Source: an uncultured Alphaproteobacteria bacterium
GTDB lineage: Bacteria; Pseudomonadota; Alphaproteobacteria; Rhizobiales; Xanthobacteraceae
Assembly: GCA_963786045.1 (NCBI GenBank)
Contig: CAWAXR010000029.1
Coordinates: 622-64,621 of the forward strand
Reading direction: 5' to 3'
Length of the DNA: 64,000 bases
Part shown: positions 25,836 through 57,760 of the stretch, in pieces
How positions within the stretch are numbered: position 1 is the first letter of the stretch
Layout of the letters: the number at the start of each line of letters is the position of its first letter
Translations under genes and position numbers: made by a program
Notes under the pieces: model-generated
Told to the model about the DNA's origin: nothing
Database searches by the model: none
What the model saw: the letters and a program-made list of their open reading frames with translations, nothing else

Positions 25836-25861
25836 GAGTTTCGGGAGACCTCTCAAGAAGC

Positions 25862-27636: not shown

Positions 27637-27656
27637 GGAGAAACGGCCATCGAGGC

Positions 27657-32386: not shown

Positions 32387-32515
32387 GGGATAACGGTTAC
32401 GTGACAACCGTGGAGAGCCCGTTACCAATCTCAGTTACCCAAGGCTTAACCCTGAAGAGGAGCGGCACTTCCCAATGCGCGCGACACATCGCGCCATCTC
32501 TCGATGTAGTTGCTT

Positions 32516-33748: not shown

Positions 33749-33889
33749 GGGCGGAGGGCTGGGCGGAGGGCTGGAATGAGAATGGGGGTTCACCTTGCAC
33801 CGTTGCGCGGGCCGATTCAACTCACGGCGATCACCAGGCGCAGGCAGCGCTTCATCCTGCGACGCCCGCTTTCGCGGTCGATGACAACT

Positions 33890-34400
33890 GCAGATACAGT
33901 TTCGCGATCTCGCGGCCCGACATGCCCGAGGTTTGCCAGAAAATTCCTTACCCTCCAGTGAGAGGGCGCAGGGAATACCGGGCGCTTGGTGCGCCCGCAG
34001 CCGCGCGTGGTGTGGTAGTAAGCACGCGCGTTAGTCACCACGGTCACACCGGAAACACCCGGCATTCCCCGCGCGATGGTTTTAACGGTTTCCTTCGTGA
34101 TCTCCCTGGTGACCGGGCTTTCTTGCCACCATCGCCTCGCGGATCATCCCGCGAAACTTGACGCCAGCGTCGGGGCGTCAGGACCACACGACTTCGCCGT
34201 CCGCTTCACGCGCCTTTCGTCTTGAAGCGCCAAAGCGTCCACCGCATCCCGCACCCAACGTTCGTGACGACCGCGAAGCGCCCCTCTTATCGAGGCGGGA
34301 CGGCATCGGATGTAAAGGTGATTTGGGTCGAGCGAGAACAGGAATATTTTTGCAGGAGGGGCTGGACAGGCAAATCGTCTGACAGCCCGCCGGGCAAATC
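33890..34400. repeat. Bradyrhizobium-type ~500 bp structured intergenic repeat element
   Basis: Recognised from memory: blocks GAGGGCGCAGGGAAT.CCGGGCG, CACCCGGCATTCCCCGCGC, GGGGCGTCAGGACCACACGACTTCGCCGTCCGC, GGAATATTTTTGC. One copy in the window; boundaries approximate. Confidence 0.65.
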
Positions 34401-34481
34401 ACCTCGGCCCGCGGCAGGGTGCGCGAACAGCCACATCACCGAATGGCGCGCGATTAGGCTTGGCTCCTCTACCAAGGACGC

Positions 34482-37400
34482 TTATCGACTTGACGGCGAA
34501 ACGGTTGCGACGGCGCTGGCGCGAGGCCGCATAATCCCGCCATTCTGCAGGATGGCCGTGATCTCGCTCGCGGGCAGCGGCTTCGAAAAATAATAGCCCT
34601 GAACCGTTTGACATCCCCAGGCCTTGAGCAGCTCCAACTGTGCGGCCGTCTCCACGCCCTCAACAACGACATCAAGTTTGAGTTCGTGCGCGAGGCCGAT
34701 GGCCGCCTTCACGATCACCTTGTTGTCGGAGGATTCCATCATCCCGAAGATAAAATTTTGCGCTATCTTGATGCGATCGACCGGGAAGCGGCGGAGATAG
34801 TCGAGCGACGAATAGCCGGTGCCAAAGTCATCAATGGCAATACGAAATCCCGCCCTGCGCAGTCGCAGGAGCACGTCATTGTGCCCACCCGATGCTTCCA
34901 TGAGGACGCCTTCCGTGAGCTCCAGCTCCACCAGTCTCGACGGCAAGGCTGTTTCTGCCAGGGCGTCCGCGAGGTTCTTTTCCAATTCGAGTGGTGTCTT
35001 GAACTGCAACGCCGACAGGTTGATGGCGATCAGTGACGGGCGGGCGCCGGCATCCATCCATTTCCTGGTCTGCCGGAAAGCCTCACGCATGACCCAATTT
35101 CCGAGAGCGACAATCATTCCAGTCCGCTCGGCGATCGGTATAAATTCCGCCGGCGGAACAAGACCCCGCTCGGGGTGGCGCCAGCGAACCAAAGCTTCAA
35201 GCCCGACAAGGCGGCCGGTATCAACATCGACCTGCGGCTGATACATCAGAAAAAGCTGCTCGGACACGATCGCCTTGCGAAGCTCCGCGCCGAGCACGAC
35301 CCGTGTCCGCACTTCCTCATCCATCGCTTCGGTAAAGAATCGATACGTCCCCCGCCCTTCCGACTTGGCCCGGTACAACGCAACGTCGGCATGCGACAGA
35401 AGCGCTTCAGCGTCCGGCGATTCGGCGCCGTGTACCGCGATCCCGATACTTGCGCTGGTGCGAATTTCGTCGCGACCAATCAGGAACGGAGCACTGACGG
35501 CCTTCAGCACCTTGTCCGCCAGGACGGCAGCGTCCGCAGGTTCATTGATATTGGTATCGATCAGCGCAAACTCGTCGCCGCCGAACCGCGCCACCATATC
35601 CGTCGTACGCGTGATTGCCTGCAGTCTTTCGGACACGGATTGCAGCAGCAGGTCCCCAACCGGATGGCCACGCGTGTCGTTGATATCCTTGAAGTGATCG
35701 AGATCGAGATAAAGCACCGCGAAATTCTTTCCGTCGCGCCCCACCCTGGAAATGTCACGCTCTAATGCCCCGACAAATGCCCGGCGGTTAGCAAGTCCCG
35801 TCAAATGATCGAAGCGTGCCATTTGCGCGATCTTTTCCTCAGCCTGCTTGCGTTCAGAAATATCCTGCATCGTGCCGACTGTCCGCACATGACGCCCTTC
35901 CGCGTCGTAGACGTTCCGGCCGATATCATGAATCCATTTGACGCCGCCGTCGTCCATGACCAGCCTGTACTCGCACTTAAAGTCGCCATGATTGGCGATA
36001 CTGCTGGCAAATGCGCGCTCGAACGTCGCGCGGTCATCCGGATGGATACGCGACAAATACGCCTCGTAGGACCCGTCAAACGTCTTCGGGTCCACGCCAA
36101 GAATGCGATAGCTTTCCCTGGAGTGGGTCGTCAGTATTGGAACGGGAGTCGTAGGTCCAACTGCCGATCCTGGCAACTTCCTGGGCTTCGGCCAGCTCCG
36201 CCTCACTGACTCGCGCTTCTCTTCTTCGATTCGACGTTGCTGATTTACAATTCCGATCCCGATCTTGTCCGCCAGTTGCAGCGCGAACGCAATTTCGTCT
36301 TGCACCCAGCGATGCGGCTTGTCCACGTGTTCGAAACAGAGAAGCCCCAGATTTCGAGCCGCCTACCCGTATAACCGCGTTCAGCACGGACGTGATCCGC
36401 TGCGGCTTCAGGTAGCTCTCGACATATCCGGCGATTCTTGGATCGGCCAGGGCATCGTCGGCGGCGACGTGGGTCGCTTCCTTCAGCGCCTGAAATTCAT
36501 CGAACGATACTCGCTCTCCTGCCGCACCATGCCGGCGGAATGCTCCCCGCTCGAGCGCCTCATAGAGGTCGATGCAAACGAGCATGGTCTCGTCCGCGTC
36601 GAACTGCCACACATTCGCCCTTTCGCAGCCCGTCACCTCGCGCGCTTCCTCGGTGACATGTCGCGCCAGCGTTTCGACATCGCCTGACAAGACAATTCCA
36701 TTTTGCTGAGAGCGCCGATGACGCGTGCATCTGCTCTCGGGCGCGCGCGAGCGTGGCCTGCGCAATCTCGACGGCGCGCCGGCGCTCGGTCACATCGCGG
36801 ACAGAACCAGACGCGGCCCAGGTACCGACCGTCAGCAGCACGCAATGGTAGAGGTGATTTGTTCAAGATATCTTCCATCGGCGGTTTCCACGTCCTCTCG
36901 CGCGGACGGTCGGGATGTCCGATACAGGTGGTAGATGCGCGCCTTGAAATCCTCGGGATTCTTCATCCAGCGGAGGCTGCCACTGCCAACGCGGCGTCAT
37001 CGGTCCCCGCCCGAAGCAAGATCCGGGGGCAACCGCCACAGATCCAGAAAACGCTGGTTGAACATGCTGACCCGCTGATCTGGCATCGACCGCAAGTATG
37101 GCGTCAGGCGATGAGTCTCTTTCAGCGTCGTCAGCAGCGATATTAGCGAACTGTAACTTCTCGGCGGCGAGCCTTGCGTTCGGTGACGTCGACCAGAACA
37201 CCTGCAGACTTCCACCAGTCTGCCAGGCGGCATCCTGCTTGGGCGTGTATCGACTTTCCACCCAATGGCAATTGCCGCTTCGCATCGACAATACGAAATT
37301 CGAGCGCCCCTCCCTTTCCGTTTTCGGCGGTTACGAACGACCTTCGCGCGGCTTCGCGATCGTCGGGATGGATTCGTGCGAGGTACAGCCCGGGATCGGC

Positions 37401-39120
37401 GAGCAAATCGGCCGACGTAGCTCCAAACGTCGCAACATTGTCAGATACATAGATCAGGCGCGGCGGTAACGTGTCTGTCGAGAACCGGTAGACGATCGCC
37501 GGGCTGCCGCGCACAGCGGCGTCGGCGTTGGACAGTTTCTCGAGATGGCTTTCACGTGTGATGGCCGCACCGATCAGATCCGCCAGGACAGTCACGGCTT
37601 CCTTCTCGATGGACGACCATGACCTCTCGGCCCGGCAATCGTCGATCGAAAGCTGGCCGAACAACTCTCCCTCGATCAGGACCGGGGCCTGCAAGATGCG
37701 ATTGAATCCCGAACGCGTCGAACATTTCCCCGGCAGCGCCGGAAACGTCGCGTCGCGAGACCGCCACCACGTTCCCCTCTCGCAATGGCTTCAACCAATC
37801 GGTCACTCCGGGAGGCGGGCTGGTCGGCAATGACGAAAAGAACTCCGGGCGCACTTCAACAGGCGCGCCGGGGCCTTGCCAGGCATTTCGCAACTTCAAA
37901 GGCGGACCAGTCGATTGATTTTGAAGAACAAGGACACGATCGGCGTGAAGCGCCTCGCCCAATCTTTGGAGGATCCTGGGGATCGCCGCGGCGATTGTGC
38001 CCGCGGTAACCAGTTCCGCCGCCGATTTGGTAATCGCGTTCAGCAAGACGTCGCGATACTGCAGCAACTGGTCGCGATCGTGGACCGCTGCAGCCATGTC
38101 GTCGAAGGCCAATGCCAGACGATCGAACTCGGGAATGCCGCTTGTTGCGCCAGCACGAGCCGACCAGTCGCCATCGCGCCAGCGCCCCGCAACGATCAAC
38201 AGGTTCTGGAACGGTCGTGCCAGGATCCGACGAACATAGAGCACGGCGAAGACGGCAGACACCAGAAGGCCTACCAGCACCACCCCTGAACTGATCCAGA
38301 TCGAGCGATTGATATCCGCGAAAGCCCGTGCGCGATCTCGCCCGACAAACACGGCGAGGCCGTTCGACGATCCGGCTTCAACCGGAACATAACCATACAG
38401 ACGGACGACGCCGTCATCGTCAGCCACTTCAGCGACGCCTGTTTTCGGTGCGGCCAGGAACGGTTTCAGATTGCTCGCCAGGGGCCGCCCGGCGAGGCCG
38501 GGATTGGGATGGCGGGCGATCAGGACGCCATTTCGGTCCGTGATGTCGATCGTCGTTTCTTCACCGAGTTTCCACTGGCTGATGGCCGTGTTCAACCAGA
38601 TCAGGTTGATACCGGCATAGACCGCGCCGGTCACCGTGCCGGCAGCATCGACCACCGGAAAGCCTACACGGATCACTTCGTTGCTCGACAAAAGGCCGAC
38701 GCCATAGACCCCCACGGAGAAGCCTGCCGTTGCCACGATCCGATTGACCAGATCGGAATCGGACACCGCTGTGCCGACGAGAGCCGGTCCACTGCTGCTG
38801 CACAGAATAATTCCGCTGCGATCGACCGCGACCAGATGGTCATATTCGAAATCACTGCTCGCGGTCGCCTCAAGGATCGCGCATGCCCGCTCGTCCCAGC
38901 CGTGCGTCGACGGGAGTTTGGCCAACGTCGCCAGGAGTTGGTGTGTCCCTCCGAGAATGCGCACCATGTCGAGCTCCGCGATGCGGGCAAGTTGCATGGA
39001 TTCGAAGCGTAACTCTTCAGATCGCTTTTCGAGCAGTTCCAGTCCATTGAACAACGCGCCGCCGGCGACCAGCGACAGCGTGACCGCGATCAACACAAAG
39101 ATGCGCGTGACGATACTCAC
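34482..39120 (-). CDS. Large Cache-HAMP-GAF-PAS-GAF-PAS-GGDEF-EAL protein, broken by several frameshifts
   Basis: Fragments in order: 37552-39120 (TM-Cache-TM-HAMP-GAF), 37143-37694 (GAF end, PAS), 36997-37233 (PAS-like), 36076-36765 (GAF), 34482-36326 (PAS, RFGGDEF, LEALVRW, DDFGTGYSS). Confidence 0.8.
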
Positions 39121-39616: not shown

Positions 39617-39819
39617 GACGCAGGTCCCTTTTTCGGAAACAGTGCGAACAGCAACCAATCCCCGCATCTTTCAGCGATGCCGGCTCAGATCAGTTTCAAC
39701 TCTCCCGGCGCGACGAGGTTGATTTAAGTCAAGTACCCGTCCGGACGTTGTGCCGCGGAGGGCGACTGCACCACCGCCGCCTCGAAGCCGGCATGATCTC
39801 TCCGGAAAACCGTTGACGT

Positions 39820-40776
39820 TCATGCGTCATTCGCCCGCCGCGAAGGCGGCGGGTGCGGCAATTTGATTCCGCAAGCCTGTTCCCAGTCGAGAAGCGTCGT
39901 CCTGTTGACAAACAGGCGCACAAATTCTTCGGTGGTCAAAGCGCCTCGATTCAAAATACCGATGTCGTTGACGTATTTCACGGGAACAGCCGCAACGCCG
40001 GCCTTGATCGCGGCACGGACATTGCGGTGCCCCTTCACGATGATATGCTTGCCCATATAGAACAGCGCCGTGGGCGCTTCGAACGGGGTAACGCCCAGGC
40101 GTTCGATGTTCTCGGCCATGCCCTCGATTTCCAGCGCCTCCGAGGCCTCTGTGACCCGCGACGGAAACAAAATCGAGGGCGAAACGAGTGCTTTTGCGAA
40201 ATGGAGTTTTGAAAGCCAAAGCTTGTAGCCAACGAGGATGTACTCAACAACCTGGGCCGCATCGAGCAATTCCGTATCGATCACATAGTCAAAATTCCTG
40301 AATGACGCGATCTCGACACCGTACGTATTGAAAAACCGTTTTCTCTCGCTTAGCGCACGTGCCTCGACAGCTCTGGTGGCGGCGTTCAGCGAAACGTATC
40401 TTTCCGCTTCGCGGCGGCCGTCGTGGATAATTCGCCGAGCCGCCTCTTCAGCCGACACAATCAGGCAAACCCGAAAGCTGTCCGACAAAAAAAGCCAGGC
40501 CATTCGCAAATCAACGACGATGTGCTCCAGGCCCGCCAGAGATCGGAGGTCGCTGTCGATCGTTTCGTCGATGCCGGGGGCGTTTTCCGCGACAAGGTTG
40601 AGCTGCAGCGTGGTCAGCCCCAGTGACCGGGCGGTCTCCCGCTGGCGGGATCCTGTCGAGTGGTAATGATAGGCGAGTTCAGTCGCCAAGCTCCGGCCAA
40701 CCGTTGTCTTGCCGCTGCCGGCAGACCCCGCGATCGATATTTGAAGACGACGTATCCGGGTGGCTGGAATGTTCAT
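39820..40776 (-). CDS. Cytidylate kinase-like P-loop kinase fused to a C-terminal ParB/Srx-like domain
   Basis: ISIAGSAGSGKTTVG, STGSRQRETA, IDETID, VVDLRMAW, SERKRFFNTYG, FDYVIDT; C-terminal IIVKGHRNVRAAIKAGVAAVPV; likely start MNIPAT at 40776. Confidence 0.75.
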   Translation of the reverse strand: MNIPATRIRRLQISIAGSAGSGKTTVGRSLATELAYHYHSTGSRQRETARSLGLTTLQLNLVAENAPGIDETIDSDLRSLAGLEHIVVDLRMAWLFLSDSFRVCLIVSAEEAARRIIHDGRREAERYVSLNAATRAVEARALSERKRFFNTYGVEIASFRNFDYVIDTELLDAAQVVEYILVGYKLWLSKLHFAKALVSPSILFPSRVTEASEALEIEGMAENIERLGVTPFEAPTALFYMGKHIIVKGHRNVRAAIKAGVAAVPVKYVNDIGILNRGALTTEEFVRLFVNRTTLLDWEQACGIKLPHPPPSRRANDA

Positions 40777-41172
40777 TTCAGCGGGAACGCCTCGCCTGTT
40801 GATGCAGCGAAATTCATAAAACTTCAATCGATCACGATGGCCGCCGCAGACATTGACGCACATCAATGGTTCCATCGTCTTGGCTGCAATTTCAGGCCCA
40901 CCGGACATCCCGCGAAGGAGCCCGGATCGCCGGACCGGAGGCCGATGGGACGATAACGGTTCCAGCCCCCCTCTGTGATCGCTCCGGACGCGACGGCTAT
41001 CGCCACCTTGATCTCGATCAAGGCCGTTTTCACCAATCGGTTTGTAATTACCAACAAGCTTGGGTGCCGCGTGATGCCGGCCGCGTCTGCCGACGCCCAT
41101 AGGATATGATGATGCCAGTTCGGAGGAACAGGACCCGGCTGGAACGACCGAAGGCGTGCTACTGCGCCAGGC

Positions 41173-42204
41173 TTGGCAGCGGGGTGGATCGTGGCTGATT
41201 TGATTGCGCAACTCGTCGCTCTCGCATTCGCCATCTTGCCGGCTGTAGCTGCGGCTGAGCCGATCACGCTCAAATTATCGTTCTTCAGCTCCGACCGTTC
41301 GCATCTCTATCTTTCGGGTGCCAAGCCATTCGTCGATGCGGTCAACGCCGATGGCACAGGGCGCGTGCGCATTGAAGCGTATTTGAGCGGACGGCTCGGC
41401 GGCCTCGAGCAATTATCGCAATTGATCCGCGATGGCACCGTGGACATCGGTTACGTCATCCCGCCCTACGAGCGGTCGGCATTCCCCGACGCTTCCGTGA
41501 TGGAACTTCCAGGCCTTTACAAGGATGCCGCCGAGGCGACGCAGGTCTTCTCGCAGCTCGTCCACGCTGGAATGATCCGCGGCTTCAGCGGCTTTTACGT
41601 GATCGGGACTTTTGCCAGCGAACCGGAAAGCATCCATACTCGCCCGCCGGTTACCTCGCTCGCCGATTTGAAGGGTAAGAGCATTCGCACCAACAATGAG
41701 ACCGAAACCGAGGTTCTCAACAGGCTCGGCGCCAAGCCATCCATAATTCCGATCAACCAGACGGCGCAGGCGATCAGCAGCGGGCAGATCGATGGCGCCC
41801 TGGTGCCGCCGGTTCCGATGATCGAGTTCGGCATCGGCCGCGTCGCGCCATACCACTATCTCCTGCGTACCTCGTGCGTACCGCAGACGTTGCTGATGAA
41901 CCGCGAAAAATTCGACAGCCTTCCTGACGACGTGAAGGCCATCATCCGCAAGTACAGCGGCGTCTGGTTCGTGAACAGTTACATCCGGGTCAACGGAGAC
42001 GCCACCGCCCAGACCATGCGGCAGCTCGAATCCGACCCCAGGAGAAAGGTGACATTTCCGTCGCCGGCCGACATGCAGACGGCGGAGGCCGTTTTCAAAA
42101 CGATCGTCGACGCCTACGCGGCGACAAGTCCCCAGAACGCCGAGCTCGTCCGCGCCGCTCGGGCCACCGTTGCAAACCTTCGCGCCAGCAAGGTGCATCA
42201 ATGA
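41173..42204 (+). CDS. TRAP DctP-family solute-binding protein, copy 1
   Basis: AAAEPITLKLSFF, GTVDIG, MELPGL, DLKGKSIR, AISSGQIDG; start uncertain (possible frameshifted start near 41106). Confidence 0.87.
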   Translation: MAAGWIVADLIAQLVALAFAILPAVAAAEPITLKLSFFSSDRSHLYLSGAKPFVDAVNADGTGRVRIEAYLSGRLGGLEQLSQLIRDGTVDIGYVIPPYERSAFPDASVMELPGLYKDAAEATQVFSQLVHAGMIRGFSGFYVIGTFASEPESIHTRPPVTSLADLKGKSIRTNNETETEVLNRLGAKPSIIPINQTAQAISSGQIDGALVPPVPMIEFGIGRVAPYHYLLRTSCVPQTLLMNREKFDSLPDDVKAIIRKYSGVWFVNSYIRVNGDATAQTMRQLESDPRRKVTFPSPADMQTAEAVFKTIVDAYAATSPQNAELVRAARATVANLRASKVHQ

Positions 42205-43271
42205 TGCGGGCCCAGCGATCTCCGGCGATTGCAATGGCGCGATCAAATCCGCGCCTGAATGCCGTGGCGCGGATTGCGGCGATGATGACAGCACTGCTGT
42301 TCTCATGCGCGGCGGCCGCCGAGCCAATCACGCTGAAGTTGGCGTTCTTCAGCTCGGATCGCTCGCTTCTCTATCTTGTCGCCCCCAAACCATTTGTCGA
42401 TGCGGTCAATGCCGCAGGAAGAGGGCGTGTCGGAATTGAACCGTATTTCAGCGGCCGGCTCGGCGGCCCGGAGCAGATCTCGCAACTCGTCCGCGACGGT
42501 ACCGTGGATATCGGTTTCGTCATTCCGTCCTACGATCGTGCGGCCTTCCCCGATGCTTCCATCATGGAACTCCCCGGCCTGTTCAAGGATGCGACGGAGG
42601 CGACACAGGTCTTATCTCAGCTCGTCGGGGCCGGCGTTCTCCGCGATTTCAGCGATTTTTACCTGATTGGCGCCTATGCCGGCGATCCGGAAGACATCCA
42701 TGCCCGGCCGCCGGTAGTCTCCCTCGCCGATTTGAGAGGCAAACGCTTCCGCGTGAATAACGAGATTGAAGCCGAGATACTCGAGAAGCTCGGCGCCCAC
42801 TCGTTAACTCTCCCGATCAACCAGACGACCCAGGCGATCAGCAGCGGGCAACTCGACGGCGCGTTGGCGGCGCCGGTCCCGCTGATCGAGTTCGGCATCG
42901 GCCGGGTGGCGCCATACCACTATTTCTTGCACACGTCGTTCATACCGCAGGCATTGCTGATGAACCGCGAGAAATTCGACCGCCTGCCAAGCGATGTGCA
43001 AGCCATCATCCGCAAGTACAGCGGCGCCTGGCTTCTGGACAATTTCATTCGGATCAACGCAGACGCCAACGCGCAGATCGTGCGGCAACTTGAATCCGAT
43101 CCCAAAAGAACGGTCACGTTTCCATCGCCAGCCGACCAGCAGACGGCAGACGCCGTTTTCAAATCGATCGTCGATGCCTACGCGGCGAAAGGTCCCCACA
43201 ATGCCGAGCTCGTCGGCGCTGCCCGTGCCGCCGTTGCAAAACTTCGCGGCGACAGTGAGGTGCGTCAATGA
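42201..43271 (+). CDS. TRAP DctP-family solute-binding protein, copy 2
   Basis: Paralog of copy 1; ATGA overlap; DLRGKRFR, AISSGQLDG. Confidence 0.88.
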   Translation: MMRAQRSPAIAMARSNPRLNAVARIAAMMTALLFSCAAAAEPITLKLAFFSSDRSLLYLVAPKPFVDAVNAAGRGRVGIEPYFSGRLGGPEQISQLVRDGTVDIGFVIPSYDRAAFPDASIMELPGLFKDATEATQVLSQLVGAGVLRDFSDFYLIGAYAGDPEDIHARPPVVSLADLRGKRFRVNNEIEAEILEKLGAHSLTLPINQTTQAISSGQLDGALAAPVPLIEFGIGRVAPYHYFLHTSFIPQALLMNREKFDRLPSDVQAIIRKYSGAWLLDNFIRINADANAQIVRQLESDPKRTVTFPSPADQQTADAVFKSIVDAYAAKGPHNAELVGAARAAVAKLRGDSEVRQ

Positions 43272-44328
43272 TGCGGACCCGAAGACGTCCGGCAATCGCG
43301 ATAGCGGGAGTGTATCCAGGCTTGAGCGCCGCGGTGGGCATCCCTGCGATGACGATCGCCCTGCTGCTCTCGTTCGCGGCCGCCGCAGAGCCGATCACGC
43401 TCAAGCTGTCGTTCTTCAGCTCGGATCGCTCGCTTCTCTATCTTGTAGGCCCCAAGCCGTTCGTCGACGCGGTCAATGCCGAAGGCAGAGGTCGTGTCAG
43501 AATCGAACCGTATTTCAGCAACCGGCTCGGCGGCCCGGAGCATCTCTCGCAACTGATCCGCGATGGCACCGTGGATATCGGTTTCGAAGTCCCGTCCTAC
43601 GAACGTGCGGTCTTCCCCGATGTCGGCATCATCGAACTCCCCGGCCTGTATCGGGATGCGGCGGAGGCGACGCAGGTTTTCTCGCAGCTCGTCGAGGCCG
43701 GCGCTCTCCGCGGCTTCAGCGATTTTTACGTGATCGGGGCCTTTGCCGGCGAGCCGGAAAGCATCCATGCGCGCCCGCCGGTCGTCTCGCTCGCCGATCT
43801 GAAAGGCAAACGCATCCGAGTGAACAACGAGATTGAAGCCGAAGATACTCGAGAAGCTCGGCGCCCATTCGTCAATTCTGCTGATCGGCCGGACGACCGA
43901 GGCGATCAGCAGCGGGCAACTCGACGGCGCTTTGTTGCCGCCGGTTCCGATGACGGACTTCGGCATCGGCCGGGTGGCGCCATACCACTATTTTTTGCGG
44001 ACGTCGTGCATACCGCTGACGGTGCTGATGAACCGCGAAGAAATTCGACAGCCTGCCCGGCGACGTGCAGGCGATCATCCGCAAATACAGCGGCATCTGG
44101 TTCGTGAACAGCTACATCCGGCTATACGAGGACGCCAACCTGCAGATCATGCGGCAACTGGAATCCGATCCCAAGAGAAAGGTCACGTTTCCATCGCCAG
44201 CCGACATGCAAACAGCAGACGCCATTTTCAAATCGATCGTCGACGACTACGCGGCGAAAAGTCCACACAACGCCGAGCTCGTTCGCGCCGCTCGGGCGGC
44301 CGTTGCGAAGCTGCGCAGCGCCAAATGA
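43268..44328 (+). CDS. TRAP DctP-family solute-binding protein, copy 3 (two +1 frameshifts)
   Basis: ATGA overlap; an extra A near 43848 (GAAGCCGAAGATACTC vs GAAGCCGAGATACTC in copy 2) and near 44039 (CGCGAAGAAATTC vs CGCGAGAAATTC). Confidence 0.85.
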
Positions 44329-44338
44329 GGTGAAGCCA

Positions 44339-45401
44339 ATGACGCGGATTCCAGGATGTCCGGCTCTCGCGGTAACGAAGTCAAATCCGCGACTGAACGC
44401 CGTGGCGGGGATCTGCGCAACGATGCGCCCTGCTGCTCTCGTTCGCGGCCGCCGCAGAGCCGATCACGCTCAAACTGTCGTTCGTCGGATCCGAGGACAT
44501 CAGCATTTATCGGTATGGGGTCAAGCCGTTCGTCGATGGAATCAACCGCGAGGGAGATGGGCTTCTGAAGATCGATGTCTATCCCAACGGCACTCTCGTC
44601 AAGGCCCTGGCCGAGCAGCCGCAAATGGTCCTCGAAGGACGCGCGGACATCGCCTATGTCGTTCCCGGCCAGACGCCCTATCGATTTCCCGACAACGCGC
44701 TGATCGAGCTCCCCGGTCAGTTTCGCGACGCCCGGGAGGGAACGCTCGCCTATAGCCGCCTGATCGCCGCCAACGCGTTACGCGGGTATCAGGAGTTCTT
44801 CGTGATCGGAGCCTACACGTCCGACCCGGCCACCATCCACAGCCGCAAGCCAATCGACTCGCTTGCCGCCATCGAGGGGCAACGGCTCCGCGCCAACAAT
44901 CAGATCGAGGCGGAGGTCCTGGAGCGCCTGGGCGCCATGTCCACCGTTCTGCCGGCATCGCAACTTGCAAAGGCGATTGGCAGCGGCGCCATCGATGGCG
45001 TCGCCATGGGCCCGACGGCCTTGTTCGATTACGGCATCGGGCCGCTGGCGACGAACCATTACCTCCTGCGTGGCGGCGTAGCGCCAAACCTGCTGGTCAT
45101 GAACCGCAGGACATTCGACGGTTTGCCCGAAGCGGCGCAGGCGCTCATTCGCAAGTTCAGCGGCGAGCGAGCGGCCGCGACCTGGATCGAGTTCTACGCG
45201 CCCTCCGAAACGCAGACCCTCGAGAAGATCAAATCGGATCCCCGGCGCAAGGTGGTCGAACCTTCGCCGTCCGACCTCGAGACCGCGCAGCAAGTCTATC
45301 GATCCCTGATCGACGCCTGGGCGGCCAAAAGCTCCCACAACCGCGAACTCCTGAAAATGATCGGGGCGGAACTCGCGACCATCCGGTCAAACAGTCGGTA
45401 A
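44339..45401 (+). CDS. TRAP DctP-family solute-binding protein, copy 4 (divergent; frameshifted near the N-terminus)
   Basis: GAGGTG RBS; same leader style as the other copies; GRADIAY, IELPGQF, IEGQRLRANN, IGSGAIDG. Confidence 0.83.
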
Positions 45402-45408
45402 GGCGCAC

Positions 45409-47408
45409 ATGGAAACGCTCGAAAATACATCCGTCTGGCGCTACCTGGTATTGCTCGTCGTGGTCCTCGGCCTGTTGGTCGGTGGCACGTGGATCACGGT
45501 CAAGACCACGACCGATCATCTGCTCTATCGGAACGCAACCCGCGCCGCGCAGAACTGGGCGCAATATCTGGCCGGGAATGTCAGCGACCTGGAGCAGATC
45601 GCGGCCGGCGAAACGCCGTCCTCCGCCAGCGTCGCGTTTTTCGAGGCGACGCGCAATGCCGGCGAGGTTTACCGCTATACGATCTTCAATCGCTACGGTT
45701 ATTCGGTGCTGGTCTCCGACCGCAACAAGATCACCCCCGTCGACGTATCCGACTTCAGCGCCGCCGCCGCCAGTTCGATCAAGGAGGACAAGCCCGTCGT
45801 CGATGCCAAAAAAGGCAGCGCGCCCGGCGAGCCGGAGTATTTTTCCGAAGCCTATGTGCCGGTCCTGGTCGGCGAACGTCCGGTCGGCGTCGTCGCCGCC
45901 TATGTCGACCAGACCGCAGAACGTAACGATTTCTACCAGGACCTTTCTGGTGGCGGCGGCTGTCGCTCTGCGCGTTGACCGGATTTTCCTTCGGCCTGCC
46001 GGCCATCGCGTGGTACCGGCGCACCCGGGAGAAGCAGCAGGCCGATCGCCGTATCCGATTTCTCGCCCACCATGACGTGCTGACCGGCCTCCCCAACCGC
46101 GCGCGCGTGATCGAGCGGCTGGAAGGGGCACTTGCGGTGTTACCGTCGACAGACGGCCACGTCGCCGTCCACTTCATAGATGTCGATCACTTCAAGCAGG
46201 TGAACGACACGCTCGGCCATGACGCCGGCGATTTTCTGCTCAGAACTATCGGCGAGCGGTTGAGCGCGATGACCGGATGGAGGACATTGTGGGGCGGCTC
46301 GGCGGCGATGAATTCGTCGTGGTGCAGACTGGCCTCGCGGGCAGGCAGATGGCCGAGGAGCTCGCCAGGCGGATCACCTCGGTCCTGAGCGCGCCGGCCT
46401 ATTTCAGGGAACAGGAAATCCGCCCGACATTTACCATCGGCGTTGCTCTCGCGCCCACCGATGGCGCCACCGCCGAGCGCCTGCTCAAGAGCGCGGACCT
46501 CGCGCTCTACAATGGCAAGGAAGCCGGCCGCGACTGCATTCGCTTCTTCGAACCGGATATGGACGCGGCGATGCAAACGCGCATCAGGCTCGAACGCATC
46601 GTCCGCGATGCGGTGGAGAAAAACCGTTTCGAGGTGTACTATCAGCCGATATTCGAAATGAACAGCAAACACCTGGTCGGGTTCGAGGCGCTGGCGCGCC
46701 TGAAAGCGCCCGATGGAACGTCGATCCCCCCGGACGTCTTCATCCCGATCGCGGAAGAACTCCGCCTCATCGACAGGCTCGGGGCCTGGGTGCTGGCGCG
46801 AGTCCTGCCGGACGGCAATATCGTGGCCGAAAGGGTTGACCATCGCGGTGAATTTGTCGCCGTCGCAATTCGAATCCGGGATGATCGAGAAGACCGTCGC
46901 CACCGCACTGAAGGAAACCGGACTGAAGCCGGACCGGCTTGAACTGGAAATCACCGAGGCGCTGCTGCTGCGCAACAGCGAACCTGTCATGGAGACGCTC
47001 AGGCGAATCAAGGCAACCGGAGTTTCGATTGTCATGGATGATTTTGGGACCGGCTATTCGAGCCTGAGCTATCTCTGGAAGTTTCCGTTCGACAAGATCA
47101 AGATCGACCGCAGCTTCATGCAGAGCTTCGAAAAATCGGGACACGACGTCGAGACGGTGGTGAAAACGATTATTGCGCTCGGGCGCGAACTGAATATGCG
47201 GGTGACTGTGGAAGGCGTCGAAACCGCTGGCCAGGTTGACTTTCTCTACGACGCGGACGCCGACCAGGTGCAGGGCTTCTATTTCGGCCATCCGGAACCG
47301 GCTTCCGGAATTAGCAGCGATATTCTCAAGCAAGCTTCCCAAACCGGCCCGGCCGAAACGCCGGCGGCTGCAGATTTGCACGAGGTCAAGCCACCCGAGG
47401 GCGCGTGA
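45409..47408 (+). CDS. TM-periplasmic (Cache-like)-TM-GGDEF-EAL protein, with frameshifts
   Basis: Fragments 45409-45978, 45975-46388, 46277-46942 and 46713-47408; HDVLTGLPNR, RLGGDEF, FEALARL, DDFGTGYSSLSYL; starts 7 bp after DctP copy 4. Confidence 0.83.
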
Positions 47409-49675: not shown

Positions 49676-49725
49676 GGCTGCCGCCGACGTTCTTGGCGAC
49701 ATCGGTTGTCAGGTTGAGCTAGGCG

Positions 49726-50152
49726 ATGGTACACTCGCCGCGATTGCCATTCATCTTTCACCGACGCGGGTCGACCGCGATCGAGTATGCGATCGTGCTG
49801 CCGGTGCTGTTGATGTTCGTGCTTGGTATCATCGATGCCGGGCGGCTGCTCTGGACCTACGTCACGATTTACCGGGCGACCGAGGCGGCCGCGCGTTGTG
49901 CGGCCATCAAGGCCGCGGCGCCGGACCTGCTCGACTTCGGCCCAAACCCAAAGCTATGCGGTCGACGCGGCGTGGGGGCTCACGATCACGCACTCCGCTT
50001 TCACGGTCAGCAATCCGGCGTGCGGAATGCAGGTCCACGCGAGCTATGATTTCCAGTTCGTCATTCCGTGGTTTCCCCAGTTCGGTGAATCACCGCCTGG
50101 AACGACAAGGCTGGTAGCGACCGTATGTTATCCTTTCACGCCGCCGGCCTGA
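49726..50152 (+). CDS. TadE-like pseudopilin, frameshifted
   Basis: RRGSTAIEYAIVLPVLLMFVLGIIDAG, ATEAAARCAA; continues in the 49823-50152 frame. Confidence 0.78.
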
Positions 50153-50165
50153 ATGGCAATCGGTC

Positions 50166-51111
50166 TCACCGCTTTGACATGACGTCGATCAGCTGCAGCG
50201 CCGCCGGCCCGCCGACGATCAGAAATATGGTCGGCATGATGAACAGCATCATCGGCACGGTCAGAAGGGCCGGAAGCTGATTGGCGCGCTCCTCGAGCTG
50301 GATCAGGGCTTCGTCGCGCATCTGTGCCGAGATCACGCGAAGCGCCTGGGCAAGCGGCGTACCGTAGCGAAGGGTCTGGGCCAACGTCGTGACGACCGAT
50401 CTGATGCTCGGTACGTCGACGCGATCGGCCATTCGCATCAGCGCCTCGTCGCGGCTCGGCAGGATCTGCATGTCCGCCGACGTTATCGCCAGCTCATCTG
50501 CCAAAGCGGGCTGGGATTGCTCGAGTTCGATCACCACGCGCGTCAGCGCATTCTCGAGAGAAAGGCCGGCTTCCACGCATACCACCAGCAGGTCGAGAGC
50601 CTCGGGCATCGAGGCCGCAACTGCCTTTGCCCGTCGTTTGGCGCTCGATTTGATAAGCATGGGGGGCAACAGCCAACCCGCAATGGCGCCGACCGCAAAC
50701 GCCAGCGGCGTCCCAAGGGAATTTTCGACAGAGAGGCGACTTGCCCTACCCCGATCACCGCCAGTCCGCCGAGAACCAGGGCGACGAGAACCCGGCCTGC
50801 GGTAAAGTAGGAAGATGCCCGAGCAGCCGGAATGCCAAGTTTGGACAATCTCCGAATCATCTCCAGCTCTTCCCGTTCCGAGACCCCTTGCCCGCGCGAG
50901 CCGGCCGCACGCTTCTCAAGCGATGGCGACGTGGCTTTAGGCACGACGACAATCTCGGTTTGACCATATCGACGCGCCGCGCGACCGCCTCGCCGCCGAT
51001 GCGGACGCTCGAGGCGATCAATATCGCCCCGCTGATCACAAGCGCCATCGCTCCAAAAATCGCCAGCAAGCTCGGCGTCGAAGCGAAAACGTCCGGCAGG
51101 ATCGACATCAT
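50166..51111 (-). CDS. tadC: TadC type II secretion F-family membrane protein, frameshifted
   Basis: PEALDLLVVCVEAGLSLE, QTLRYGTPLAQALR, EERANQLPALLTVPM. Confidence 0.83.
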
Positions 51112-51127
51112 GATTTGTCTTCCGTGG

Positions 51128-52083
51128 TTAGGCCGCCGTCACCCGGCGCATCAATTTCCGCATTGTCAGGAAAGCGAACGCAAGCAATCCTACGGCAGCA
51201 GCGAGGATATACTTTCCGCGAGGGTCATACATAAGCGGCGCGATATAGGCGGGGTTCGTGACAAGCAGGGCACCGATTGTGAAGATCGGCAATCCACCGA
51301 GCACATAGGCGGAGACCCGCACCTCCGCGGTGGCCGCGATCCCCTTCAGGCGCACGGAGCGGCGGCGCCGTATGATGTCGGAGAGAATCTCGAGCGTGGC
51401 CGCAAGATTGCCTCCGGTCGCGTATTGCAAAGTCACAGCGACCGAGAAAAACCGGAAATCCGGCAGGCCCATCTGCGAGCTGATGGCATCGAGCGCCCGT
51501 TCGAAGGGGACACCGATGTCCACCTGATCGGTGATCATCGCAAATACCGTGTTGACCGGCGGCGGCGACTTCGTCGCCAACGGAACGCACGGCGGTGACG
51601 ATCGGCAGACCGGCCCGCAGCATGCGAATGATCATGTCGATGGCATTGGGAAACAGCTCCATGAACTGATGCTCGGCGCGGTTCTGCTCCCGCTTCAAGA
51701 CCTGTCGTGGAAGGAGGACGAACGCCAGCGCAGCGAGTAGGCCGGCAATCCCTACCGAGTTCCCGAACACGCGATAGCCGAGAGGCCAGGCGACAGCGGC
51801 GGACACCACAGCGATGATCAGCAGCTTGAGCCCGCCGCTTCGCATCCCCCACCGATACGGCACGCCGATGGAAAACAGGCGCCGCGCAGCGTCGTCGATC
51901 CAGGCCGGCTGGCAGGCTGCTGCGGACCTGAGACTGGCTTGTTCGCGCTGACCGGAGGTCGAGCGACCAGATCGACGCGCTGCTCCACCTCCAATCTTGC
52001 CGCCCGGCTCAGCATGAGGGCACCGATCAGAGACCGCCGCTCGCGAGCAAGAACAGGATAACGGCGATCTGGAGCTGGAGCAT
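51128..52083 (-). CDS. tadB: TadB type II secretion F-family membrane protein, frameshifted
   Basis: [40 protein letters not shown]. Confidence 0.83.
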
Positions 52084-52087
52084 GAGA

Positions 52088-53484
52088 TCAGGCCTCGCTG
52101 TTCCCATGCGGACCGAGCGTATCCAGGAACGCATTGGCCAAGCCGAAATATTCGAGCCGCGGCAGAAAGCGCGGCCGCGCGGGCGCGGCTCGAACGTGCC
52201 GCGCAGCGTGCCGTCGGCATTCTCGCCGAGATATTTGAATAGAAACAGGTTTCCGAATGAAATGATCTCTCCTTCGAGCCCGGCCACGTACGCAACCTCG
52301 GTGACCCGGCGCACGCCGTCGCGCATGCGCTCGGTCTGGACGACGAGGTCGATGGCGCTGACGATCTGGCCGCGGATCGCGCGCATCGGCAGGTTGACGT
52401 TCGCCATCAGCATCATGTTCTCGATGCGGGCCAGCGCGTCGCGCGCGGAATTGGCGTGGATCGTCGACATCGAGCCGTTGTGGCCGGTGTTCATCGCCTG
52501 CATCATGTCGAAGGCCTCGGGGCCGCGCACCTCGCCGACGATGATGCGGTCGGGCCGCATGCGCAGCGCAGTTGCGCACCAGATCGCGCTGGGTGATCTG
52601 CGCCGTGCCCTTCGATGTTGGCGGGGCGCGTCTCGAGCTGAATGACGTGCGGCTGCTGCAGTTGCAGCTCGGCCGCGTCCTCGATGGTGATGATGCGCTC
52701 GCTCGGATCGATCATGCGCGACAGCGCGTTGAGCAGCGTCGTCTTGCCGGAGCCGGTGCCGCCCGAGATGATGATGTTCAGCCGGCAGCGCGCGGCGATC
52801 TCGAGCGCCCGGCCGAGCTCGGCGAGACGCGTGCCGAGCTCGACGAATTTCGAGAACTCCATGACGCTGCGCGAGAATTTGCGGATCGAGATGCACGGTC
52901 CCTTCAGGCTGAGCGGCGGAATGATGACGTTGACGCGGCTGCCGTCGGCCAGCCGCGCGTCGAGCATCGGGCTCGACTCGTCGATGCGCCGGCCGACCGA
53001 CGAGGCGATGCGCTGGGCAACGTGCAGCACGTGCGCATCGTTGCGGAACTGGAACTTGGTCAGCTCGAGCTTGCCGCGCCGCTCGACATAGATCATGAAG
53101 CGGCCCGTTGACCAGGATGTCGGCGACCGTGTTGTCGCGCAGCAGCGGCTCGAGCGGTCCGAGCCCGACCATTTCGTCGACGATCTGGCGCGCGAGCACT
53201 TCCTGCTCGCGCTGATTGAGAGGCAGCCTTTGATCGCTCGCGATCTTTGCCACCATCTGCTGGACACGAATTGCCAGTTCGTCACGGGTCAGCAGTACCG
53301 CAACGGCCGGCTCGATCTTCGCCAGCACCTGTTCGTGAATGGAATCGCTGACGGTCATCGAGGCACGACCAAGTTCCGCTTCGGTTCGAAGCGGTACCGG
53401 CGCCCGCGCCGCGATTGTTCGATCGACTGAACCGACTACCTCCGGCTTCCGCTCCTCTCCGCCCTTTTTTCCGAAATCGGACAT
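52088..53484 (-). CDS. cpaF: CpaF/TadA pilus assembly ATPase, frameshifted
   Basis: [66 protein letters not shown]. Confidence 0.9.
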
Positions 53485-53488
53485 GGAT

Positions 53489-54674
53489 TTATCCAAACAG
53501 ACGCTTGAGGAATGAGGGCGCCGAAATATCCGGGTCTCCGGTGAGCTGATTGACCAGCGGATTCAGAGCGGCCTGAAGTCCCGCGCAGCCCTCGATGGCC
53601 TTGATACCGAGAATTGAGGCTTTCCCGACGTCGCGCTGATACGGCACAATGATGTCGGGGGCCTTCCCGACGGCACGACTGAACTCCGCCGGCGGCAGGC
53701 CGCCGACGGCACCGTTCTGGTTCAGGATGTGGATTGTCGTTCGCTCCGGCGTGTTGGGTCCGATTTCCTTTTGCCAGCGAGAAACGTCGCGCGCGCTGAC
53801 CAGGCTTCCGTTGCTGACCAAGACACACAGACTCGGCAGGTGCAGCGCTTTCTTGAGCGTGGGTCCCAGCAGCGCCGGGACGTCGATGAAAACAAACCGG
53901 TACCGGCGCAGAAGAATCTCGATCAGCGAAAGCAGAGCGGCCTCTTCGACAGCCACCTGGCCGTCGAGCGGTTCCAGTGACGCAAGCAGGTCGAGGCGAG
54001 GAGCGACATGGATCACGCCGCGCTCGAGAAACAACTCATCGACCCGTTCCGGGCGCGCGAAGGCTTCGGCCAACGCACCGCTTGGGGACGTGTCGAGCTG
54101 GAGCGCCGCGTCCCCGTTGGCAAGGTCGAGGTCCATCAGCATGACCCAGCGCTTGTGCGCATCCGCCAGCCGCCAGGCCGTGCTGACAGCAATCGTCGTG
54201 GCGCCAACGCCGCCGCGCACACCAAGCACGAAGACCAATCTTCCGGTGCGGGAGTTGGCCCGACTTCTCGACCCCCGTCAGAATGACCTCACACGCATGA
54301 GTAAAGACATTCCTGACGAGTGGCTTGTAAAGATATTCGGAGACACCGGCGTACTTGAGTTGGCGATACAATCTGATGTCATTATCGCGGCCAATGACGA
54401 TCACGCCGGTTCCAGGTTCGCAGACCTGCGCCAGCTCGCCGATGCGCGCTACCGGGTCGTCGACATCGCTGATATCGACGACCAGCAGCCGTGGAGAGGT
54501 TAGCGCGGACATGGCGGCCGTGGCGGTCCTAACGTCACCTGTTGTGAATTTGACATTCGACAGGCCGAGATCGTTGAACGATTGGCGGATGAGGCCCGCG
54601 GAATTCTCATCCGAAACATAGACCAGCGCCGTCGATTCCTTGTCACTTGCAACTGCCGGGGCGACATCACTCAC
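53489..54674 (-). CDS. cpaE: CpaE/TadZ-like protein (receiver-like + MinD/ParA-like), one frameshift
   Basis: LLVVDIS and [16 protein letters not shown]; [10 protein letters not shown]; LMDLDLANG; GTGA overlap with cpaB. Confidence 0.82.
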
Positions 54675-55652
54675 TGCGTAACTCCTTCCGCGCCGACGGA
54701 CGGATTGCCGCTCTTCTGCGGCGCGACGGGGACAACGATGCCTTCTTCCACCGCGGCGGGAGCGCTGAGGATCGCCTCGCGCGGCGGCACGGTGCGGATC
54801 GATTTTTCGATGCTGCTCCCGGTTGTGAAAGGACTTCGCCTTGTTTTGCCGGGATTGTTTGAGGGCCGGCGATACGTCGGAGGCCCAGGTCCCGACGCCT
54901 CTCGCTGACGCCGCCGCCGGAACACCGCCACCTTCCAGGGCTCGAACCGACACTCCGAGCCGGCCGAGCTGGCTGGCGACGAACAGCGTTTCCGCCTGCC
55001 GCGGGCTAACCTCGAGGCTGACTGTCTTGGGAAGCTGCGATTCCAGACTACCGATTCGCCGTTCCGCCGGCGCGGCTCTGGCTGCGGCGCTGAGCGACTG
55101 GTCAACCGCAAGGACGCGCACGTCAACCAGCACCGTCTCGGCCACTTCCTTGCGCGATGGCTCAACGGTATCGCCGAAACTTTGAATCAGGATGACGTCG
55201 ATGCGGTCACCCGGCAGCATCAAGCCGGACAAGCTTTGCGACGCATCCACCGTTATTGAAACAGCCCGGGTCCCCGGCTTCAGGACCGCCGCCAGGAAGC
55301 CCCTTTCGTTGGGTTTGACGAAATCGCTGGCGACCAGGGGTTCGCCCTGGCCGAAATCGCGCCGCGCCACCGCGCCCAGCAATTCGGATTCATGCACCTG
55401 ACCCCGCATCAGGCTTCCGACCGTAACATCGGTTCGCCCGACATCCCGCCAGGCGATATCGTCCGCGCGCAGCAACGCGCCGGTGCGGATCGGCCGCGCA
55501 GCCACCAATATCGCCGGTTGAACAACAGGAGCGGGGGCTTTGGCTTCCGTGACCGCACTACGATCCCTCTGGAAAAACCAGACCGACGAAAGCGCCAATC
55601 CGGCGACCAGCGTGAGGACGCCTAAAGCGAGCAGGAGGTTGCGGACAAGCAT
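54671..55652 (-). CDS. cpaB: CpaB/RcpC Flp pilus assembly protein
   Basis: SAF domain ILVAARPIRTG, LKPGTRAVSI, PGDRIDVIL, VRVLAVDQ; C-terminal frameshift. Confidence 0.87.
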
Positions 55653-56200
55653 TGGATAGCCTCACTGACGATCCGGTAGATGACTCCGGCCAGTACAGCC
55701 AGCGCATACGGCATCGGCTCGCCGGCCGCGATCCGCACCCGCTCGGCAGTAAGCAGATGTCCGAGGTCCCGTAACTTATCGCGAGCATCCCGGGTAGCCG
55801 CCGGACAGAATCGAGGCTCCGGAATTCTTGCCACGATCGCGCGCATGACGAGGTAGGCGACGCCCATCAATCCGCCGGCCACGGCAATGCCCAGTAACAA
55901 GGCTCCGGCGTCGGACAACGGGAAGAGAAGAGATACGGCGGCAATCAGCTTGACGTCGCCGCCGCCGATCCATTGATGGTGAGCAAGAAGGCCCAGCGCG
56001 ACGACAATCGACGCCGCGGCGAGAAGATCGAACAAGATCAGTCCGGGCGCCGACACGAGACGACGACCGACGCCGCACACCGCGATGACGAGCACCAGGC
56101 GATTGGGAACGATCCGGCACCGAAGATCGACCAGCGCGACCGCAAACAGTGCCGCCACGCTGGCAATCAAAAGTATCGCGGACAATATCGCCGCACTCAT
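55622..56200 (-). CDS. cpaA: CpaA/TadV prepilin peptidase (A24)
   Basis: VDLRCRIVPN, IGGGDVKL, MPYALAV. Confidence 0.87.
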   Translation of the reverse strand: MSAAILSAILLIASVAALFAVALVDLRCRIVPNRLVLVIAVCGVGRRLVSAPGLILFDLLAAASIVVALGLLAHHQWIGGGDVKLIAAVSLLFPLSDAGALLLGIAVAGGLMGVAYLVMRAIVARIPEPRFCPAATRDARDKLRDLGHLLTAERVRIAAGEPMPYALAVLAGVIYRIVSEAIQCLSATSCSL

Positions 56201-56229
56201 GAGACTTCCGATGGTTGTGAGCACTCCCA

Positions 56230-56404
56230 GCCAAGCGCGGTTGCAGACTATAGGAAAATTCCGCAGGTTGGTGCCGACGGCTGTGACCGCAACGATGATT
56301 GCGACCGCTATCAGCGACGCGATGAGTCCGTATTCGATGGCGGTGACACCCTTCTCCGAATCAATCGACAAGTATCTGGAAATTTTCCGGGCCAACGTAC
56401 GCAT
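56230..56404 (-). CDS. flp: Flp type IVb pilin (3' end approximate, frameshifted)
   Basis: DSEKG/VTAIEYGLIASLIAVAIIVAVTAVGTNL Flp motif; a frameshift fuses it in silico to cpaA. Confidence 0.85.
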
Positions 56405-56708
56405 GGTACTTCTCCTGGTGAGATGATCCCTTTCCTACATAGGATACCCCCATTGGTTCCATCTTGACCTGCATCAAGAAAAACCTGCAATTTTTGCTGA
56501 TTCCGCTCGCCACGCCCGCTCCCACCGATCCGCGGCGATGGTTGGGCGATGTCTTCCATGATGGGTATCATATCAACGAGGCAGGATAACCTGCCTCGTT
56601 GAACGGCAGGTCGCATTTGAGCGATCGGAACCGCGGGTTCCCGCAATAGGTGAGGCTGACTTACCTGTTTCCCTGCTCGCACAACGCGTTGCAAGCCCTT
56701 AGCCGCTG

Positions 56709-57246
56709 TTACGGCCGCGCCGACGAAACCAGCGAGTTGATCAGCGCGATATTGGCAGTGATGGTGGGATCGCCGGGCTGCCGCGCGTAGGCTTTCATGA
56801 AGTACCTGCGCGCGACGGTGAACTGGCCACGCAGAATATACGAGTAGCCCATGTTATCTGAGGATTTGCGGCGTCTCGCCCGAAAGTCTGATCGCCGTCC
56901 GGTACGCCCGATCGGCGAGATCGAAGCGCCCGATATGGTCATAGCTCCCGGCCAGCCCGATCCAGGCGTCGGCGTTGTTTGGATCCTTTTCGACAACATC
57001 GCGGAAATACCGCTCCGCCAGACCGTAGTTACCACGGCTGAAATGCTGCAGGCCGAAGCGGAACGGCTCGCTGGCTGGAACATAGGCCAGTTCCAGGGAC
57101 TGCGGCACTGTCGAGGTGGTGGCGACATCCTGGACTTCCGCTGCGGCAGGGGCGCCACCGACGGTTTCGCACGCGGCCAGTCCCGTCGCGATCGATGCGG
57201 CCATGAGGCAAAGGACAAGCCGCGAAACATCGAATCCAGGCGTCAT
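56709..57246 (-). CDS. TPR lipoprotein (TadD-like), one frameshift
   Basis: Lipobox LAAC; TPRs GNYGLAERYF, AWIGLAGSYD, NMGYSYILRG. Confidence 0.78.
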
Positions 57247-57326
57247 CCGTTTTTCCCGTTCGCCGGCAACCGGTGCCGTAATCTTGTCCACGTGTAGCCT
57301 CCAGGGCACAGGGCGCCAGCGAATGG

Positions 57327-57751: not shown

Positions 57752-57760
57752 GGCGTCACC

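Follow-up and report, generated by a model that had tools for sequence, protein, structure and literature searches.

A small number of systems are known in which a periplasmic binding protein is paired with a membrane enzyme of cyclic di-GMP (c-di-GMP) turnover. In NspS-MbaA of Vibrio cholerae and ScrB-ScrC of V. parahaemolyticus, the binding protein goes together with a membrane protein carrying GGDEF and EAL domains (PMC8050422). Two reviews present these as the only systems of a binding protein and a GGDEF/EAL enzyme and name no signalling member of the DctP family (PMC8050422, PMC9602780), the family of binding proteins of TRAP (tripartite ATP-independent periplasmic) transporters. In one TRAP binding protein, SiaP, the role of the carboxylate-binding arginine, Arg147, is established (PMC4646407). 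For Bacillus subtilis, the account of Graf et al. 2014 given in PMC12718363 describes the TRAP-type protein DctB as a co-sensor of the kinase DctS. Here we analyse a stretch of 64,000 nucleotides (the window) from contig CAWAXR010000029.1 (C29) of an uncultured Xanthobacteraceae bacterium, in which four DctP genes in tandem precede a gene for a membrane GGDEF-EAL protein (the sensor). We propose that the DctP proteins of this clade are likely to mediate control of the neighbouring c-di-GMP enzyme, acting as detachable ligand sensors. The locus appears to be one copy of a conserved Xanthobacteraceae signalling module, consisting of one to four secreted DctPs and the membrane enzyme, which are predicted to be co-transcribed.

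The operon occupies positions 41173-47408 on the plus strand, where Pfam recognizes four PF03480 (DctP) genes and then a gene with GGDEF and EAL domains. DctP-1 (41173-42204, +) is open and encodes a secreted protein of 343 amino acids, whose signal peptide ends AAA/EP and which is a member of one of the array's distal-type paralogue lineages; it matches PF03480 with an E-value of 2.6e-35 and 122.6 bits, the cut-off being 23.4. DctP-2 (42201-43271, +; 356 amino acids, open; E-value 4.6e-35, 121.8 bits) overlaps DctP-1 by an ATGA at 42201, and DctP-3 (43268-44328, +) overlaps DctP-2 in the same way at 43268. DctP-3 is a tandem duplicate resembling DctP-2 (82% nucleotide identity in the alignment); it lies in three frames, and its pieces cover Pfam model positions 16-144 and 214-284 with 46.6 and 17.4 bits. 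The stop of DctP-3 (44326-44328) is separated by 10 nucleotides from the ATG at 44339 of DctP-4 (44339-45401, +), a member of the sensor-proximal lineage that scores 99.5 bits (E-value 2.9e-28) on 44397-45401. A gap of 7 nucleotides then lies between the TAA of DctP-4 (45399-45401) and the sensor ATG at 45409. The sensor gene (45409-47408, +) encodes a transmembrane helix (TM1), a periplasmic Cache/PDC-like domain, a second transmembrane helix (TM2), a GGDEF and an EAL domain. The part from TM1 to TM2, the presumed docking site of DctP, is encoded at 45409-46037 (+), and the profile of this N-terminal module matches the contig at 46030-46563 in genome coordinates. The catalytic part lies at 46065-47294 (+), with GGDEF at about 46065-46534 and EAL at about 46598-47294 by Pfam.

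In a preliminary description, made from the letters of the window and its open reading frames, the same order of four DctP genes and a TM-periplasmic-TM-GGDEF-EAL gene had been read, with the ATGA couplings and the 10- and 7-bp gaps, and each of these was located in the sequence and by Pfam. The lack of DctQ and DctM genes, also stated there, holds more widely, with no DctM detected on the whole contig. The arginine is indeed kept in all four DctPs, where it sits in KSIR, KRFR, KRIR and QRLR from DctP-1 to DctP-4, and the differing HLY/LLY/LLY and CVP/FIP/CIP segments were both seen. No Rfam match was obtained in the whole window, and scans for promoters and terminators over the locus gave signals no higher than background.

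The conservation of this gene arrangement speaks for a functional partnership. We assembled 60 loci bearing the N-terminal module of the sensor (transmembrane helix, periplasmic domain, transmembrane helix), identified by profile in species-representative genomes. They derive mostly from metagenome-assembled genomes (MAGs) of Pseudolabrys or Xanthobacteraceae and include two Bradyrhizobium isolates, the cultured strains Bradyrhizobium sp. WSM1743 and B. hipponense aSej3 (L064, L066), each with a single-DctP module. Local profile scans found one to four DctP-clade genes directly adjoining the sensor on the same strand in 58 of the 60 informative sensors, and unbroken arrays contained one copy in 23 cases, two in 11, three in six and four in four. 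The tight spacing and overlaps between the DctPs and the sensor are conserved across the loci examined, the flanking genes vary from locus to locus, and insertion sequence elements are frequent. The gene of a transport receptor would be accompanied by dctQ and dctM; of about 60 loci, only three have a DctM within 10 kb, and none has one adjoining the module. What is conserved instead is the arrangement of the NspS-MbaA type, that is, a transporter-less binding-protein gene adjoining a co-oriented gene for a membrane GGDEF-EAL protein. In an even sample of Xanthobacteraceae, the sensor module is present in 28 of 401 genomes and 14 of 62 genera, and a DNA search of 30 relatives returned generic GGDEF/EAL similarity only. 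Variants of the arrangement were also seen: L033 and L057 each hold two complete DctP-sensor modules in tandem on the same strand, and L094 has its DctP on the downstream instead of the upstream side of the sensor.

The DctP proteins of these loci have a common origin. In a reciprocal test, the DctP-clade profile was run on the same 401 family genomes. Matches of at least 344 bits were found only in sensor-positive genomes, nearly all of them adjoining the sensor, and the matches in 16 sensor-negative genomes, scoring 215-335 bits, all lie in operons in which DctP is followed by a DctQ-sized gap and DctM. In a tree of 105 rows, the 88 DctPs that are either linked to a sensor or detached group in a single clade (SH-aLRT support 97), which is nested in a ladder of binding proteins from DctPQM operons (QM-linked hereafter), indicating a single switch of partner. 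The proximal copies of multi-copy arrays constitute a lineage of their own (25 rows, support 99) that includes DctP-4. The distal copies are divided among three or more supported clades common to several genomes, and the arrays thus seem to have been assembled from old, maintained paralogue types. No residue strictly separates the sensor-linked from the QM-linked DctPs at the thresholds used. The preliminary description had suggested that TRAP-type DctP receptors were repurposed as inputs to a c-di-GMP enzyme, and had called for a comparison of dctQ/dctM and GGDEF-EAL neighbours of homologues; linkage to the sensor in all but two of the loci, the absence of any dctQM adjacency, the QM-linked outgroup and the single clade all speak for that idea. 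A detached member of the clade was also found in the genome of the window (C22:279522-280499, minus strand, 401 bits), with neither a sensor nor a DctM nearby. Its relatives in the clade are the copies most distal in the arrays of L053 and L069, with which it groups; L090, L091 and L092 also hold detached copies of this kind.

The predicted structures are consistent with a ligand-binding protein and a membrane receptor. The AlphaFold2 model of DctP-1 (pLDDT 94.8) has the two-lobed fold of TRAP binding proteins, and Foldseek aligns it with TarP, SiaP and DctP7 at TM-scores of 0.70-0.87. The closest folds are TarP aromatic-acid binding proteins (TM-score 0.81-0.87, 24-25% identity), whose structures carry coumarate, cinnamate, ferulate or caffeate; also close is a marine TRAP binding protein for aromatic acids. 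An aromatic or lignin-derived acid is thus possibly the ligand class, which at about 25% identity is only a lead. Of 99 clade members, 97 have the carboxylate-binding arginine of the KxIR motif, and so do all 16 QM-linked sisters. We take it to be the equivalent of SiaP R147, from its position in the motif and the R147/N187 spacing.

The periplasmic domain of the sensor comprises about 145 amino acids between transmembrane segments at residues 12-32 and 178-200. In the AlphaFold2 model of the N-terminal module (pLDDT 89, pTM 0.78), a long N-terminal helix is followed by a PAS-like alpha/beta core, both placed between the two transmembrane helices. In Foldseek, this domain resembles the extracellular domain of WalK (TMt 0.64-0.71) and those of KinD, dCache chemoreceptors and DctB. 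No sequence match was found for it in Pfam or, with the N-terminal profile as query, in the PDB, and it is a single Cache/PDC domain by its modelled fold only. On the cytoplasmic side, the sensor encoded by a second copy of the locus on contig C33 has intact GGDEF, RxxD I-site, EAL and DDFGxGYS motifs, which are conserved in 90-94% of 109 family sensors as well, so that both the GGDEF and the EAL activities are plausibly live.

Starting from the gene order, the protein families, the exclusive linkage, the single origin, the folds and the catalytic and ligand-binding motifs, we propose the following mechanism. Each DctP would be exported and bind a carboxylate ligand through its conserved arginine, possibly an aromatic or lignin-derived acid. 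The ligand-bound DctP may then dock on the Cache domain of the sensor, and docking would shift the balance between c-di-GMP synthesis by GGDEF and breakdown by EAL. We infer the physical binding of DctP to the Cache domain, the identity of the ligand and the direction of the c-di-GMP change from these features. Several old DctP paralogue lineages could widen the range of ligands read by one enzyme, and the DctPs might serve as interchangeable inputs to it. An extended form of the idea, which we advance tentatively and regard as doubtful, is a combinatorial input bank. In it, the paralogous DctPs, including the detached copies, would differ in specificity, possibly for lignin-derived aromatic acids, and vie for a single docking site on the Cache domain; the proximal lineage, which is always retained, would be the primary or adaptor partner. 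If true, one c-di-GMP enzyme would integrate several chemical cues, and the system would be the first in which TRAP-family binding proteins are given over to second-messenger signalling.

Several observations weigh against control of the enzyme by DctP. In the assembled sequence, three of the five genes of the operon (DctP-3, DctP-4 and the sensor) have interrupted reading frames. Two sensors, that of L045, for which the full upstream sequence is available, and the distant one of L071, have no adjacent DctP. More distant relatives of the sensor module occur without DctP and with other outputs, one with a histidine kinase and one beside MotA/B; the pairing with DctP therefore defines matching sub-clades of both partners. 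All 27 sensor-positive genomes hold 2-49 DctM genes, which makes a distal transporter in trans possible, and the Cache domain of the sensor could bind a ligand by itself. At L098, where a distant sensor relative stands without DctP, a Peripla_BP_6 gene lies immediately upstream in divergent orientation, and its product may be a different binding-protein partner of the same sensor module.

The frame breaks have to be judged against the second copy of the locus. Contig C33 of the same genome carries three open DctP genes and an open gene for a sensor of 665 amino acids. A block of about 24 kb is duplicated (39813-63463 in the window against 2200-29138 in C33; L011, L012) at 78-98% identity, containing a cytidylate-kinase (Cmk)-like gene, the DctP array, the sensor, Tad/Flp genes and a GAF-PAS-GGDEF-EAL gene; within it, identity is about 90% between 39813-47403 and C33 2200-8707 and 78-85% between 49677-63463 and C33 14892-29138. 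The divergence between the two copies is mosaic, with a synonymous divergence (dS) of 0.31 for DctP-1, 0.027 for DctP-2, 0.08 for DctP-4 and 0.165 for the sensor (nucleotide identity 89.5% for DctP-1 and 98.4% for DctP-2), which suggests gene conversion between the copies, of recent date in DctP-2. Against C33, the ratio of nonsynonymous to synonymous divergence (dN/dS) is 0.18-0.19, indicating purifying selection on the window copy. The third DctP of C33 (C33 5643-6704, L011) is a hybrid, in which the first 49 residues are the signal peptide of DctP-3 and the rest is the body of DctP-4. It looks like the product expected of unequal crossing-over between tandem paralogues, a process that would alter the copy number of the array. 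A repeat of about 500 bp (33881-34408 in the window) exists in more than 30 copies, 72-98% identical, that are spread over many contigs; one copy stands at the start of C33, which argues that both contigs come from the same organism. The copy in the window is flanked by a 19-nucleotide imperfect inverted repeat (33797-33815 and 34404-34422).

As assembled, only DctP-1 and DctP-2 of the five window genes are open, and seven small frame-breaking indels interrupt the others, two in DctP-3, one in DctP-4 and four in the sensor. The preliminary description, which read the operon as five continuous genes, left these breaks unremarked. Relative to DctP-2, DctP-3 has 1-bp insertions at about 43842 and 44038, which distribute it over three frames. 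In DctP-4, a 2-bp deletion at about 44425 in the signal peptide relative to the C33 copy puts the body out of frame, and the frame of the body contains no ATG, GTG or TTG before 44625. The sensor has 1-bp indels at 45933, 45958, 46273 and 46798 relative to its intact C33 paralogue and is spread over four frames. On balance, we favour consensus or assembly error as the source of these seven indels and give recent, real decay a lesser but substantial chance.

If the decay is real, the locus in the window would be a genuine pseudogene in the course of being lost, as the redundant C29 copy of the duplicated block, and the window would encode nothing functional beyond DctP-1 and DctP-2. This would account for the regional distribution of the breaks: about 24-27 frame-breaking indels fall within 43.3-63.5 kb, against a nearly clean copy on C33, and at 0-23 kb of the contig the genes give Pfam matches over their full length in a single frame, which also rules out a uniformly poor contig as the cause. 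The indels are not linked to homopolymers, and sizes of 2, 4, 5, 7 and 8 occur as well. Decayed modules are found in short-read MAGs too (L075, L047), and there are more broken genes in the same genome, at 34.5-39.1 kb of the window and in a DctM gene on contig C30. On the other side, projection on the intact C33 frames yields no reliable nonsense substitution alongside about 24 frameshifts. The four apparent nonsense codons were judged unreliable, three being in N-terminal stop-to-stop extensions and one in a segment where the reference is out of frame. Comparison of the broken sensor with the intact copy gives a dN/dS of 0.19, equal to that of the intact DctP-1 and DctP-2, a value that rules out an old pseudogene; the corrected-frame protein is nearly identical to the intact one. 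The contexts of the indels also recur, with CG[A]AGA twice, at both DctP-3 insertions, and [T]GCGCCG twice, which suggests a systematic consensus error, and similar splits are seen in many loci of related long-read MAGs.

The remainder of the duplicated block and other parts of the genome also contain broken genes. Several Tad genes are frame-broken relative to C33, the CpaF-like Tad ATPase gene (52027-53496, -) and several of its neighbours being spread over two to four frames; the secretin gene is intact in the window (57761-59344) and lies in two frames in C33. The GAF-PAS-GGDEF-EAL gene at 60443-63523 (+) is in four frames in the window and is a single open frame of 1031 codons in C33. Upstream of the block, at 34482-39120 (-), two pieces, one dCache-HAMP (37552-39120) and one PAS-GGDEF-EAL (34482-36326), appear to be remnants of a single broken sensor gene, and an intact dCache-PAS-GGDEF-EAL paralogue is located at 29642-32428. 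The DctM gene of contig C30 (G000 C30:69537-70765) is split over three frames.

Consensus error and decay concern the copy in the window; a second alternative concerns the whole module. The DctPs might be ordinary transport receptors for a DctQM encoded elsewhere, with the GGDEF-EAL gene only co-regulated, or its product directly sensing the same compound through a Cache domain of its own. The retention of DctM genes in every sensor-positive genome would fit this, as would the transporter-type arginine and TarP-like fold of the DctPs, the distant Cache-module relatives that work without DctP, and the detached clade members located away from the sensor. Yet clade members never adjoin DctQM in about 60 loci and in all sampled genomes, whereas every DctP of the sister clade does; in the genome of the window, most DctM genes are paired with an adjacent, low-scoring DctP of their own, and the tight spacing and overlaps with the sensor have been conserved. 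This exclusive and ancient linkage argues against transport, which we consider improbable. A passive leftover, in which a TRAP operon lost dctQM while lying beside a GGDEF-EAL gene to which it had no relation and is not functionally coupled, has a precedent in orphan DctP genes such as that of Bordetella DctP7 (PDB 2pfy), but is hardly credible given a linkage held over 14 genera, varied contexts and copy-number changes and through tandem modules (L033, L057), matching boundaries of the DctP and sensor clades, and purifying selection on both partners.

The genes around the operon do not form part of the conserved module. Upstream, a divergent cytidylate-kinase-like gene (39820-41211, -; PF13189) belongs to the block duplicated on C33; it is not beside the module at other loci, and the flanks differ in L013-L015. 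Downstream, Tad/Flp pilus genes at 49677-59344 (-) encode TadB/C, CpaF, CpaE, CpaB/RcpC, Flp with a prepilin peptidase, and the secretin, as assigned by Pfam. This locus lies 2.3 kb downstream of the operon; the preliminary description had placed the module next to it. However, no CpaF was found within 10 kb of the module in about 60 other loci, only beside the two copies of this genome, and a functional tie to the Tad pilus has no support from conservation. That description is thus supported on the layout and on the repurposing of the DctPs, and not on five intact genes or on a link to the pilus. Farther upstream, the G+C content of the window falls to 0.54-0.56 at 24000-28000, compared with about 0.61, and a 464-residue protein encoded there (26242-27636) matches NMT1_3 (PF16868).

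If control of the c-di-GMP enzyme by its DctP neighbours is correct, the TRAP/DctP family would be added to the binding proteins that mediate receptor activation, with a c-di-GMP enzyme as the receptor. The module would also be an evolutionary example of a transporter receptor that changes its partner once and then diversifies into arrays. It may offer a route to the cues, perhaps plant or lignin-derived acids, behind biofilm and motility decisions in abundant soil Xanthobacteraceae. The two cultured Bradyrhizobium strains with a single-DctP module make the idea directly testable.

Several known systems resemble the module in part. Like Bordetella DctP6 and DctP7, the latter among the structure matches of DctP-1 (2pfy), its binding proteins are DctP-family members encoded without membrane components. 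Unlike those, they stand in arrays beside a c-di-GMP enzyme. DctP6 and DctP7 are not known to have a partner signalling protein. The TarPQM transporters of Rhodopseudomonas palustris and others provide the closest solved structures to DctP-1 and have the carboxylate-binding arginine in common with it; however, TarP is encoded and works with TarQM, and the present clade never adjoins DctQM. As in DctB-DctS-DctA, in the account of that system available to us (PMC12718363), a TRAP-type binding protein here would serve a membrane receptor and not a TRAP transporter. The output there is a histidine kinase, with a single binding protein and DctA as third partner. The preliminary description knew of no DctP-array version of such signalling, and our literature searches likewise turned up no account in which DctP arrays are paired with a c-di-GMP enzyme, but the TRAP-type co-sensor DctB, as presented in PMC12718363, is a partial precedent. 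The closest parallel is with NspS-MbaA and ScrB-ScrC, where the gene of a transporter-less periplasmic binding protein stands next to that of a membrane GGDEF-EAL enzyme whose periplasmic domain is Cache-like. In those systems the binding protein controls c-di-GMP turnover; here, such control is proposed. The binding protein of the present module belongs to PF03480 (DctP/TRAP), and theirs to SBP_bac_8 or SBP_bac_3. Its receptor domain appears to be a single Cache/PDC of about 145 amino acids, whereas theirs is described as dCache-like, and, unlike in MbaA, no HAMP domain lies between TM2 and GGDEF. Judged by family membership, the DctP-sensor module is analogous and not homologous to NspS-MbaA, and it has one to four paralogous binding proteins where NspS-MbaA and ScrB-ScrC have one.

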